64,000 bases of DNA from Escherichia phage HMD-9: sequence record PV287714.1. The stretch is one strand, 5' to 3'. The translations under genes and the position numbers were made by a program. Numbering within the stretch: the first letter of the stretch is position 1; each line of letters opens with the position of its first letter. The notes beneath the pieces are model-generated. The model saw only the letters and a program-made list of their open reading frames with translations. It was not told where the DNA came from and did not search any database. Positions 5,847 to 6,674 of this stretch are shown in pieces.

Positions 5847-5922
5847 TGGTCGAGGCAGTAGGGGTCGAACCTACGACCTAGGACTTAGAAGGTCCTTGCT
5901 CTTCCTTCTGAGCTATGCCTCG
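5847..5922 (-). tRNA. tRNA-Arg (anticodon UCU)
   Basis: cloverleaf by hand: acceptor CGAGGCA/TGCCTCG, D-arm GCTC..GAGC, anticodon loop CTTCTAA, T-arm GTAGG-TTCGACC-CCTAC, CCA encoded. Confidence 0.85.
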
Positions 5923-5926
5923 GATT

Positions 5927-6001
5927 TGGCGGACATGCATGGATTCGAACCATGGACCAATTGATTAACAGTCAACTGCTCTACCACTGAGCTACACATC
6001 C
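5927..6001 (-). tRNA. tRNA-Asn (anticodon GUU)
   Basis: acceptor GGATGTG/CATGTCC (two G-U pairs), D-arm GCTC-AGTGGTA-GAGC, anticodon loop CTGTTAA, T-arm CATGG-TTCGAAT-CCATG, CCA encoded. Confidence 0.75.
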
Positions 6002-6005
6002 AAAT

Positions 6006-6092
6006 TGGTGGGGAGTGATGGAGTCGAACCACCCGAGTCGCAATGACAATGGATTTACAGTCCACACCGCTACCTCTACGGGATAACTCCCC
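6006..6092 (-). tRNA. tRNA-like gene, probable type-II tRNA-Tyr (anticodon GUA) with irregular D-arm
   Basis: acceptor GGGGAGT/ACTCCCC, anticodon stem-loop TGGA-CTGTAAA-TCCA, long variable arm, T-arm GGTGG-TTCGACT-CCATC, CCA encoded; D-arm pairing is non-canonical. Confidence 0.5.
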
Positions 6093-6101
6093 TAATTAAT
6101 T

Positions 6102-6176
6102 TGGTGGCCCTGGGTGGAATTGAACCACCATCTGGCGATTATGAGTCGCTTGCTTGAACCTTCCAGCTACAGGGCC
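6102..6176 (-). tRNA. tRNA with anticodon CAU (Ile2/lysidine type by T4 position; Met not excluded)
   Basis: acceptor GGCCCTG/CAGGGCC, anticodon loop CTCATAA, T-arm GGTGG-TTCAATT-CCACC, CCA encoded; 1 nt from tRNA-Thr. Confidence 0.8.
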
Positions 6177-6177
6177 T

Positions 6178-6253
6178 TGGTGCTGATTGACGGAATCGAA
6201 CCGCCGACCTTCTCATTACAAGTGAGTTGCTCTACCTACTGAGCTAAATCAGC
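6178..6253 (-). tRNA. tRNA-Thr (anticodon UGU)
   Basis: acceptor GCTGATT/AATCAGC, D-arm GCTC-AGTAGGTA-GAGC, anticodon loop CTTGTAA, CCA encoded. Confidence 0.85.
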
Positions 6254-6258
6254 AAAAC

Positions 6259-6348
6259 TGGCGGAGGCGATAGGATTTGAACCTATGAGTCGCCGGAGCG
6301 ACTGCCGGTTTTCAAGACCGGTGCATTAAACCACTCTGCCACGCCTCC
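6259..6348 (-). tRNA. tRNA-Ser (anticodon UGA), type II
   Basis: acceptor GGAGGCG/CGCCTCC, anticodon loop CTTGAAA, long variable arm, T-arm ATAGG-TTCAAAT-CCTAT, CCA encoded. Confidence 0.85.
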
Positions 6349-6350
6349 AG

Positions 6351-6424
6351 TCTCCGTGGCAGGATTTGAACCTGCGACATTCTGCTCCCAAAGCAGACGC
6401 TCTACCAAACTGAGCTACACGGAG
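6351..6424 (-). tRNA. tRNA-Pro (anticodon UGG)
   Basis: acceptor CTCCGTG/CACGGAG, D-arm GCTC-AGTTTGGTA-GAGC, anticodon loop TTTGGGA, T-arm GCAGG-TTCAAAT-CCTGC; CCA not encoded; 2 nt from tRNA-Ser. Confidence 0.85.
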
Positions 6425-6434
6425 TAAATTAAAT

Positions 6435-6508
6435 TGGAGCGGATAATGAGAATCGAACTCACATCATCAGATTGGAAGTCTGAGGTAATGCCATTATACG
6501 ATATCCGC
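6435..6508 (-). tRNA. tRNA-Gly (anticodon UCC)
   Basis: acceptor GCGGATA/TATCCGC, anticodon stem-loop TCAGA-CTTCCAA-TCTGA, T-loop TTCGATT, CCA encoded. Confidence 0.85.
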
Positions 6509-6513
6509 AAATT

Positions 6514-6600
6514 TGGTGCGAGAAGTGGGACTCGAACCCACAAGGAAATCATTCCGCAGCATTTTAAGTGCTGTGCCTTTACCAATTTGACCATTCTCGC
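6514..6600 (-). tRNA. tRNA-Leu (anticodon UAA), type II
   Basis: acceptor GCGAGAA/TTCTCGC, anticodon stem-loop CAGCA-CTTAAAA-TGCTG, long variable arm, T-arm GTGGG-TTCGAGT-CCCAC, CCA encoded. Confidence 0.85.
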
Positions 6601-6601
6601 G

Positions 6602-6674
6602 CTGGGAATAAAGGACTCGAACCTTTGCATCTAGCAGTCAAAGTGCTATGCCTTACCAACTTGGCTAATTCCCA
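6602..6674 (-). tRNA. tRNA-Gln (anticodon UUG)
   Basis: acceptor TGGGAAT/ATTCCCA, anticodon stem-loop TAGCA-CTTTGAC-TGCTA, T-arm AAAGG-TTCGAGT-CCTTT; CCA not encoded; 1 nt from tRNA-Leu. Confidence 0.85.

Follow-up and report, generated by a model that had tools for sequence, protein, structure and literature searches.

Which tRNA genes does Escherichia phage HMD-9 carry, how do they differ from those of phage T4, and what might the additional ones be for? These questions are raised by a dense cluster at positions 5847–6674 of a 64,000-nucleotide (nt) stretch of sequence record PV287714.1 (the whole stretch is hereafter called the window), in which ARAGORN places ten tRNA genes, all on the minus strand. 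The phage is a Tequatrovirus, with ~96% identity over 20 kb to genomes of the ime09 group, and the locus is in all likelihood the ordinary tRNA operon of such a T4-like coliphage, in the segB-free form of the T2/RB type. The best reading of the whole is a functional ten-tRNA operon that would supplement the supply for A/U-ending codons and act as a buffer against tRNA-targeting defences. Detection relied on two independent methods, ARAGORN and Rfam model RF00005 (gathering score 29). Nine of the ten tRNAs reached 59–73 bits with RF00005 (E-values of 1e-11 to 1e-15), and tRNA-Tyr scored 30.2 bits. Starting from the Gln end, the genes are as follows (all called by ARAGORN; bit scores refer to RF00005):

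6601–6674, minus strand: tRNA-Gln(UUG), first half of the Gln-Leu dimer; 66.0 bits; 100% identity with T4; without encoded CCA.
6514–6600, minus strand: tRNA-Leu(UAA), class II; 59.3 bits; 100% identity with T4; CCA encoded.
6435–6508, minus strand: tRNA-Gly(UCC); 63.3 bits; 98.6% identity with T4; CCA encoded.
6350–6424, minus strand: tRNA-Pro(UGG), a distinct allele and first half of the Pro-Ser dimer; 72.4 bits; without encoded CCA.
6259–6348, minus strand: tRNA-Ser(UGA), class II; 62.6 bits; 100% identity with T2 and 96.7% with T4; CCA encoded.
6178–6253, minus strand: tRNA-Thr(UGU), first half of the Thr-Ile dimer; 72.9 bits; 96% identity with T4; CCA encoded.
6102–6176, minus strand: tRNA with CAU anticodon, by its stems of the Ile2 (lysidine) type, T2 allele; 59.9 bits; CCA encoded.
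6006–6092, minus strand: tRNA-Tyr(GUA), class II; 30.2 bits; CCA encoded; 4-nt connector (UAUC) between acceptor and D stems.
5927–6001, minus strand: tRNA-Asn(GUU), a minority allele; 72.6 bits; G73 discriminator; CCA encoded.
5847–5922, minus strand: tRNA-Arg(UCU), T2-type isoacceptor allele; 66.9 bits; 97% identity with T2 and 62% with T4; CCA encoded.

A first-pass annotation, made from the sequence without database searches, had proposed this gene order with these anticodons, and ARAGORN returned the same ten tRNAs. Its estimate of 1–2 nt within the Gln-Leu, Pro-Ser, and Thr-Ile pairs agrees with the measured distances of 1, 2, and 1 nt: a single base (C) separates the Gln discriminator from G1 of Leu, two bases (CU) separate the Pro discriminator from G1 of Ser, and one base follows the CCA of Thr before the CAU tRNA begins. 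Further along, the gaps amount to 9 nt (CAU-Tyr), 4 nt (Tyr-Asn), and 4 nt (Asn-Arg). Gln and Pro had been named as the tRNA genes without an encoded CCA, and they are indeed the only ones. Likewise, Tyr and Asn had been placed beyond the T4 set, which comprises eight tRNAs with neither gene among them, and the T4 spacer had been called missing; the 712 nt including segB that lie between Ile and Arg in T4 are absent from the window. Overlooked at that stage were the published T2L/RB1/RB3 arrangement, the fact that the CAU and Arg genes are other alleles, and the extension of the operon to rnaD, rnaC, and a terminator.

The comparison with T4 defines what has changed. In T4 (NC_000866), the order is Gln, Leu, Gly, Pro, Ser, Thr, Ile, segB, Arg, rnaD, and rnaC, and the Ile-Arg interval of 712 nt includes the 666-bp segB; in the window, Tyr and Asn occupy that place. 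Both phages share the genomic position, the order of the first six and a bit genes, and the dimer spacings (0–2 nt for Gln-Leu, Pro-Ser, and Thr-Ile). These likenesses of gene content, homology, and allele structure can be read directly from the alignment, which runs at 96% identity from upstream of Gln into the first 20 nt of Ile. There homology is lost, and it returns (89–93%) exactly at the CCA of Arg to continue through rnaD, rnaC, and the terminator. Since the CAU tRNA is only 63% identical to T4 tRNA-Ile and the Arg gene only 62% identical to its T4 counterpart, the alignment identifies the difference as an alternative cassette, Ile2'-Tyr-Asn-Arg' in place of Ile-segB-Arg, and not as an insertion of two genes. 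No segB was found in the cluster, where the non-tRNA sequence from the CAU tRNA to Arg is confined to spacers of 9, 4, and 4 nt. The CCA ends differ as well: Ser and Ile of T4 lack an encoded CCA (the 3' end of T4 tRNA-Ser reads ..CCG/TAA), whereas Ser and the Ile-type CAU tRNA of the window encode it.

This arrangement is already known; it is published, common, and annotated in hundreds of genomes. T2L, RB1, and RB3 lack segB and encode Met(CAU), Tyr, Asn, and an isoacceptor Arg, and in a T4 × T2L cross, a T2L segment of ~1250 bp was replaced by segB in 99.6% of the progeny (Brok-Volchanskaya et al., Nucleic Acids Res 2008, PMC2330249). T2 (AP018813) and the window share the segB-less CAU-Tyr-Asn-Arg cassette with the same 4-nt spacers, at identities of 100% (CAU), 98.9% (Tyr), 84% (Asn), and 97% (Arg), and T2 Ser encodes its CCA as the window Ser does. 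The two clusters are not the same, however. T2 lacks tRNA-Thr and has two open reading frames (ORFs) inside the cluster, whereas the window has Thr and no ORFs in the cluster and is more compact, giving ten tRNAs versus nine; in addition, the Asn and Pro alleles of the window differ from those of T2 (84% and 85% identity). Across public phage genomes, 1077 records match the tRNA cluster, and many of them annotate Tyr and Asn. The cassette is largely intact in 375 records (one match over at least 80% of its length, with inserts such as tRNA-His allowed) versus 126 with the Ile-segB-Arg form of T4, so that the segB-less form is the commoner of the two in public Tequatrovirus genomes. The compact ten-tRNA layout recurs in other Tequatrovirus isolates, for example in Hafnia phage vB_HpaM_IsaacDaniel (MW749000), which is annotated with the same ten tRNAs in the same order and without intervening ORFs; this genome and Escherichia phage vB_EcoM_JB75 (MH355584) each give one uninterrupted match of ~96% with point differences only. 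Other relatives depart from this layout: phage G29 has tRNA-His(GUG) and small ORFs added to the cluster, and in T6, the Tyr gene adjoins segB.

Regarding the accessory tRNAs, Tyr(GUA), Asn(GUU), and His(GUG) vary among phages (G29 region 2850–3205 and others), and in Felix-O1-like phages, Asp(GUC) adjoins Tyr. The Tyr, Asn, His, and Asp genes all have GUN anticodons and belong to the queuosine family. This set may be linked to nucleases specific for it (of the colicin E5 type), which we offer as an idea.

What, then, could the Tyr and Asn genes contribute? One explanation is that they compensate for codon usage only (UAU/UAC and AAU/AAC), to the exclusion of any role against host defences. 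Codons were counted directly in 60 window ORFs and in a small E. coli sample of 15 genes. Tyr and Asn codons, to which the first-pass annotation had drawn attention, are both enriched in the phage ORFs: Tyr codons reach 41.8 per 1000 versus 26.4 in the E. coli sample, and Asn codons 58.9 versus 47.9; in the ORFs on the plus strand, most of them late structural genes, the Asn value climbs to 63.2. The same trend holds for AGA (11.7 versus 2.3 per 1000) and AUA (15.5 versus 8.1 per 1000), and each of the ten tRNAs reads codons that an AT-rich genome favours. However, the most over-represented amino acids are Lys (71 versus 37 per 1000) and Asp (64 versus 45 per 1000), for neither of which a phage tRNA exists, and codon demand can therefore be only part of the explanation. 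T4, moreover, thrives without Tyr and Asn, and the occurrence of the Tyr family across unrelated phages and phage-like plasmids, together with its near absence from bacterial chromosomes, suggests selection beyond codon matching to a single host.

Experiments with related phages also speak for a function beyond codon supply. The variable arm of E. coli tRNA-Tyr is the cleavage site of the Septu system EcB88 (PtuAB); T6 tRNA-Tyr was detected by northern blot, and plating on Septu EcB88 is restored when this tRNA is overexpressed or amplified (Chihara et al., Nat Commun 2026, PMC13096335). In the same study, deletion of the T6 tRNA region raised Septu sensitivity, T4, which has no tRNA-Tyr, could not escape, and T2 was resistant (PMC13096335). 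A tRNA-Tyr of the T5 family counters the PtuAB of retron-Eco7, and for the tRNA-Tyr of the T5-like phage SP15, both the anticodon and the stems were needed for rescue, a dependence implying that this tRNA acts in translation (Azam et al., Nat Commun 2024, PMC11555353). The window Tyr is identical to T6 tRNA-Tyr at 85 of 87 bases (97.7%) and has the same non-canonical connector, and a T5-like phage has exactly the same variable arm (UGUCAUUGCGACUCG). By sequence, it thus falls within a family with experimentally tested anti-PtuAB activity, and by analogy we infer that it is the clearest anti-defence candidate of the operon and may play such a role in HMD-9. The increased Septu sensitivity after deletion and the rescue by supplied tRNA-Tyr are difficult to reconcile with codon compensation alone, although the lack of intrinsic resistance of T6 tRNA-Tyr to Septu cleavage fits it. 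On balance, we consider a role confined to codon usage unlikely, without regarding it as far-fetched.

A far weaker alternative holds that the GUA gene is a decayed tRNA pseudogene that is merely carried along, leaving Asn as the only genuine extra tRNA. The RF00005 score of 30.2 bits stands against 59–73 bits for the neighbouring genes and 53.4 bits for E. coli tyrU, and the ARAGORN fold, which uses the canonical two-base connector, gives a D-stem (UCCC/GCGG) with a C-C mismatch. The first-pass annotation had noted an irregular D-arm and treated a pseudogene call for the GUA gene as speaking against its proposal. The irregularity is real and conserved across homologues. A pseudogene call exists in the literal sense, as a sequence identical at 87 of 87 positions is labelled tRNA-Pseudo-GTA in one GenBank record, that of phage ECO4 (MF001360, 1063–1146), and the labels pseudo or OTHER are attached to homologues in Felixounavirus AYO145A and Tequintavirus NBSal005. 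The label, however, stems from the non-canonical core of the family and does not indicate decay; the exact 87-nt sequence is labelled tRNA-Tyr in other records.

The structure of this core was resolved by alignment. Canonical tRNAs have exactly two nucleotides (8 and 9) between acceptor and D stems (PMC7609411). The window Tyr departs from this rule with 4 nt: in the Rfam alignment, a four-base UAUC connector is followed by a D-stem CCGU/GCGG and a canonical D-loop (A-G-A-G-G-U-A). In other respects, the tRNA is canonical, with a 7-bp acceptor, 5-bp anticodon and T stems, a 7-nt anticodon loop (U33, purine 37), the D-loop GG, the T-loop TTCGA, and a 3' CCA, and compensatory changes support these features. 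Homologues were taken from Vequintavirus, Karamvirus, Jiaodavirus, Felixounavirus, Mooglevirus, Tequintavirus, Sugarlandvirus, Mydovirus, and Enterococcus Schiekvirus. All 14 GenBank homologues retain the D-stem C(C/U)GU/GC(G/A)G, in which one pair covaries from C-G to U-A, and have 4–5 bases in front of it. The canonical-register D-stem (UCCC/GCGG) was discarded, since none of the homologues forms it without a mismatch and 5 of 14 have lost it. RNAalifold, applied to the family alignment, independently produced the same structure, and compensatory changes were directly observed at 14 of 24 pairs. A further 122 loci yielded 51 unique sequences, 47 of them with a connector of 4 nt and 4 with one of 5 nt. 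A connector of 4–5 nt, consisting of UA and two or three variable bases, is thus present in all 65 sequences examined (14 from GenBank phage records and 51 from the other loci, with two recurring in both sets). The acceptor stems differ greatly in sequence across the family and are fully compensated, while the anticodon loop CUGUAAA, A73, and the CCA end are conserved.

Tyrosine identity in E. coli is determined by A73, by G34 and U35, and by a long variable arm. The window Tyr carries these elements of an E. coli tyrosine-accepting tRNA, namely A73, a GUA anticodon, and 15 nt of variable region containing a 3-bp stem, and may be charged with tyrosine. The low RF00005 score results from the 4–5-nt acceptor-D connector, and scores across the family are similarly depressed (27.7–39 bits). 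Some members are even outcompeted by a sub-threshold tRNA-Sec match (29–36 bits versus a cut-off of 47). A tRNA-Sec (RF01852) assignment was rejected for the window Tyr, which reaches 34.4 bits, more than its RF00005 score but below the 47 needed, and has the anticodon GUA instead of UCA; an acceptor stem lengthened to 8 or 9 bp was likewise discarded, the additional positions being unpaired in the window Tyr and its homologues. An odd architecture that recurs in all 14 GenBank homologues, which come from many phage genera, and in 51 of 51 unique sequences, with compensated acceptor stems and a conserved anticodon loop, discriminator, and CCA end, is not what decay would leave. The T6 tRNA-Tyr, which differs at 2 nt, was both visible on northern blots and able to rescue infection (PMC13096335), and rescue by the SP15 tRNA-Tyr depends on its anticodon and stems (PMC11555353). 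Taken together, a pseudogene is highly improbable.

The Tyr gene also has a characteristic distribution. A scan with the core pattern returned at least 120 viral contigs and 2 of 185,579 bacterial species genomes. The whole 87-nt gene used as a blastn query matched 1354 GenBank phage records and 272 E. coli plasmids (70–110 kb, 90–94% identity), and it found no match in any E. coli chromosome, even at E = 10. A recent capture from the host was rejected on the lack of a chromosomal match and on the ~60% identity to tyrU. One of the E. coli plasmids, NZ_AP028872 (109.6 kb, phage-plasmid-like), has an Asn-Tyr-Thr-Ser array at 3921–4471, whose phage-type tRNA-Tyr is identical at 81 of 87 positions and has the connector UAGU. 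It is conceivable, and we put it forward tentatively, that Tyr belongs to a large lineage found almost only on phages and plasmids, with the conserved 4–5-nt connector as its defining trait. If this were true, the connector might alter recognition by host tRNA-targeting nucleases, modification enzymes, or tyrosyl-tRNA synthetase, and a functional anti-defence tRNA would be systematically mistaken for a pseudogene by standard tRNA finders. The extended connector of phage tRNA-Tyr was not described in the literature searched, and a review of non-canonical tRNAs (PMC7609411) omits the family. Its conservation in this lineage is the one point that goes beyond the searched literature, and we regard it as a modest curiosity.

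The remaining genes of the cassette were also assigned by allele. The CAU tRNA is 100% identical to the T2 gene annotated as tRNA-Met, and the label Met given by ARAGORN rests on the anticodon. Its first three acceptor bases, GGC, are common to E. coli ileX and metT, whereas of the two only ileX has the acceptor GGCCC/GGGCC. Because the CAU tRNA has this ileX acceptor (C4-G69, C5-G68) and an anticodon stem-loop identical to that of ileX (GCGACUCAUAAUCGC), it is, as judged from these stems, of the Ile2 (lysidine) type, ileX-like rather than metT-like. The tRNA-Asn, 84% identical to T2 Asn, is matched at 95% identity or more by ~56 phage records; the closest outside match of this allele is phage N4 (91.9% over 62 nt). 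The tRNA-Pro is 85% identical to both T4 and T2, with compensatory stem changes. These minority alleles of Asn (5927–6001) and Pro (6350–6424), both with compensated stems, suggest allele exchange within the cluster.

The Asn allele is of further interest with respect to segB homing, as the preferred 27-bp cleavage site of SegB lies inside tRNA-Asn (PMC2330249). The corresponding feature in the window is:

5925–5951, minus strand: putative SegB site, 27 bp, from the T-arm to CCAAA of tRNA-Asn; 23/27 match to the reconstructed T2 site.

The site was reconstructed from T2 as GGTTCGAATCCTATCACGTCCGCCAAA, which reproduces exactly the five differences of the Ser site given in PMC2330249. All five bases singled out by those authors (G6, A16, G18, A26, and A27) are kept in the window, and the four changes (positions 12, 13, 14, and 17) fall in the degenerate middle. 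With 23 of 27 positions matching and all five key bases retained, the phage is likely a homing target of SegB. A tblastn search of the window with T4 SegB identified a seg-like ORF near 45.2–45.8 kb as the only relative. This ORF (45202–45819, plus strand, 205 amino acids) is 31% identical to T4 SegB over ~200 residues (E = 1e-19; aligned at 45256–45786); well away from the tRNA cluster, it presumably encodes a further GIY-YIG homing endonuclease of the seg type.

The operon extends beyond the tRNA genes on both sides, and the following elements were assigned there:

6744–6769, minus strand: site resembling a MotA-box middle promoter (ATGCTTTA, 12 nt, TATTAT), ~70 nt upstream of tRNA-Gln.
5731–5845, minus strand: rnaD homologue (T4 species 2 stable RNA), 85/119 identical to T4 (71%), with conserved ends and a diverged apical hairpin.
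5587–5724, minus strand: rnaC homologue (T4 species 1 stable RNA), 136/139 identical to T4 rnaC (98%), with a tRNA-like T-arm.
5513–5536, minus strand: intrinsic terminator at the operon end, with a 10-bp stem (7 G-C pairs) followed by TTTTT, conserved with T4.

The exact MotA-box-like sequence at 6744–6769 is a unique match in the window, where the degenerate pattern gives 10 matches versus 4.1 expected. A promoter role is suggested by the consensus match and by homology, as the region is 96% identical to T4. In T4, the entire operon is transcribed from a middle promoter located immediately 5' of the cluster (Broida and Abelson, cited in PMC2330249), and the transcript ends after the species I gene (PMC2330249). 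The MotA-box-like site agrees with the T4 model of one middle-promoter transcript across the cluster. The rnaD homologue, compared with positions 5054–5172 (119 nt) of the T4 locus record, retains the 5' hairpin and outer stem of T4, while its central ~50 nt are unrelated in sequence and still form a hairpin. For the rnaC homologue, a fold z-score of −3.85 was obtained. An eleventh gene for tRNA-Lys(UUU) at 5586–5679, modelled by ARAGORN (94 nt) and labelled as such at the homologous site in phage G29 (MK327940), is scarcely credible. In this model the D-arm is weak, the anticodon stem contains a mismatch, the extra arm measures 8 bp, and a CCA is missing; Rfam returned no tRNA match there even at E up to 1, and the sequence is 98% identical to T4 rnaC, a 139-nt RNA that is only partly tRNA-like. 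The tRNA-Lys was therefore rejected as part of the rnaC homologue, a mislabel that some GenBank records share, that of G29 among them.

The flanks are collinear with T4 (96% identity upstream, 89–93% downstream), and the operon lies, as in T4, between the trna.2-ipI side and the e.8-e side on the early-transcribed strand. Upstream, the ORF at 6772–7059 corresponds to T4 trna.2 (95 amino acids, phrog_2023). Directly past the terminator, a 157-amino-acid ORF (4986–5459, minus strand, phrog_2280) is found, which is also present in IsaacDaniel and G29; T4 has no annotated gene at this place between rnaC and e.8. PHROG searches with these two ORFs (4986–5459 and 6772–7059) returned families of unknown function only. 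Rfam matches to Plastid-ycf2, Plastid-psbI-rps4, sX4, and YrlA were rejected as antisense or overlapping images of the tRNAs, as they lay on the plus strand and across tRNA junctions and far below the gathering scores.

From these elements, the following course of events can be proposed. By comparison with T4, a MotA-dependent middle promoter near 6769–6744 would give rise to one minus-strand transcript that ends at the terminator (5536–5513) and spans the ten tRNAs, rnaD, and rnaC. Host RNase P, RNase E, and 3' exonucleases would cut this precursor by way of the Gln-Leu, Pro-Ser, and Thr-Ile dimers, and the host CCA-adding enzyme would complete Gln and Pro, again as modelled on T4. Once processed and charged, the ten tRNAs would read A/U-rich codons (AGA, AUA, UUA, GGA, UAU, and AAU), which are much commoner in the phage genes (36% G+C) than in E. 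coli, and may top up the supply late in infection. At the same time, they could cushion translation when host defences destroy particular tRNAs, with Tyr countering PtuAB nucleases (Septu and retron-Eco7) as its phage family does. In a mixed infection, SegB would cut within the Asn gene, and the cassette would be replaced by SegB's own.

Several points weigh against a functional operon with this dual role. Septu cleaves T6 tRNA-Tyr itself, and protection was seen only when this tRNA was overexpressed or amplified (PMC13096335). In T6, the segB adjoining Tyr drives tandem amplification under Septu pressure, whereas the cluster in the window has no segB beside Tyr and, by its layout, would lack this driver. 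On the side of codon demand, Lys and Asp are over-represented above Asn and yet have no phage tRNA, and the E. coli reference comprises only 15 genes. The RF00005 score of Tyr is marginal (30.2 versus 29), and the pseudogene label in MF001360 stands beside it. Finally, expression and charging in HMD-9 are predictions, and the promoter is assigned by a consensus match and T4 homology. The functional ten-tRNA operon nevertheless remains the best reading.

As a genome feature, the cluster carries little weight; this is how the tRNA operon normally looks in T2-like and RB-like Tequatrovirus phages, and its biology is already published. For annotation, it holds a warning, as Tyr is easily called a pseudogene and the stable RNA of rnaC is easily called tRNA-Lys. 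The 4–5-nt acceptor-D connector of the phage tRNA-Tyr poses a small structural puzzle. For the phage itself, two consequences are predicted: HMD-9, which unlike T4 has a tRNA-Tyr, would be less sensitive to PtuAB defences that cleave tRNA-Tyr, and its Tyr-Asn cassette would be lost to segB homing in a mixed infection with a T4-type phage.

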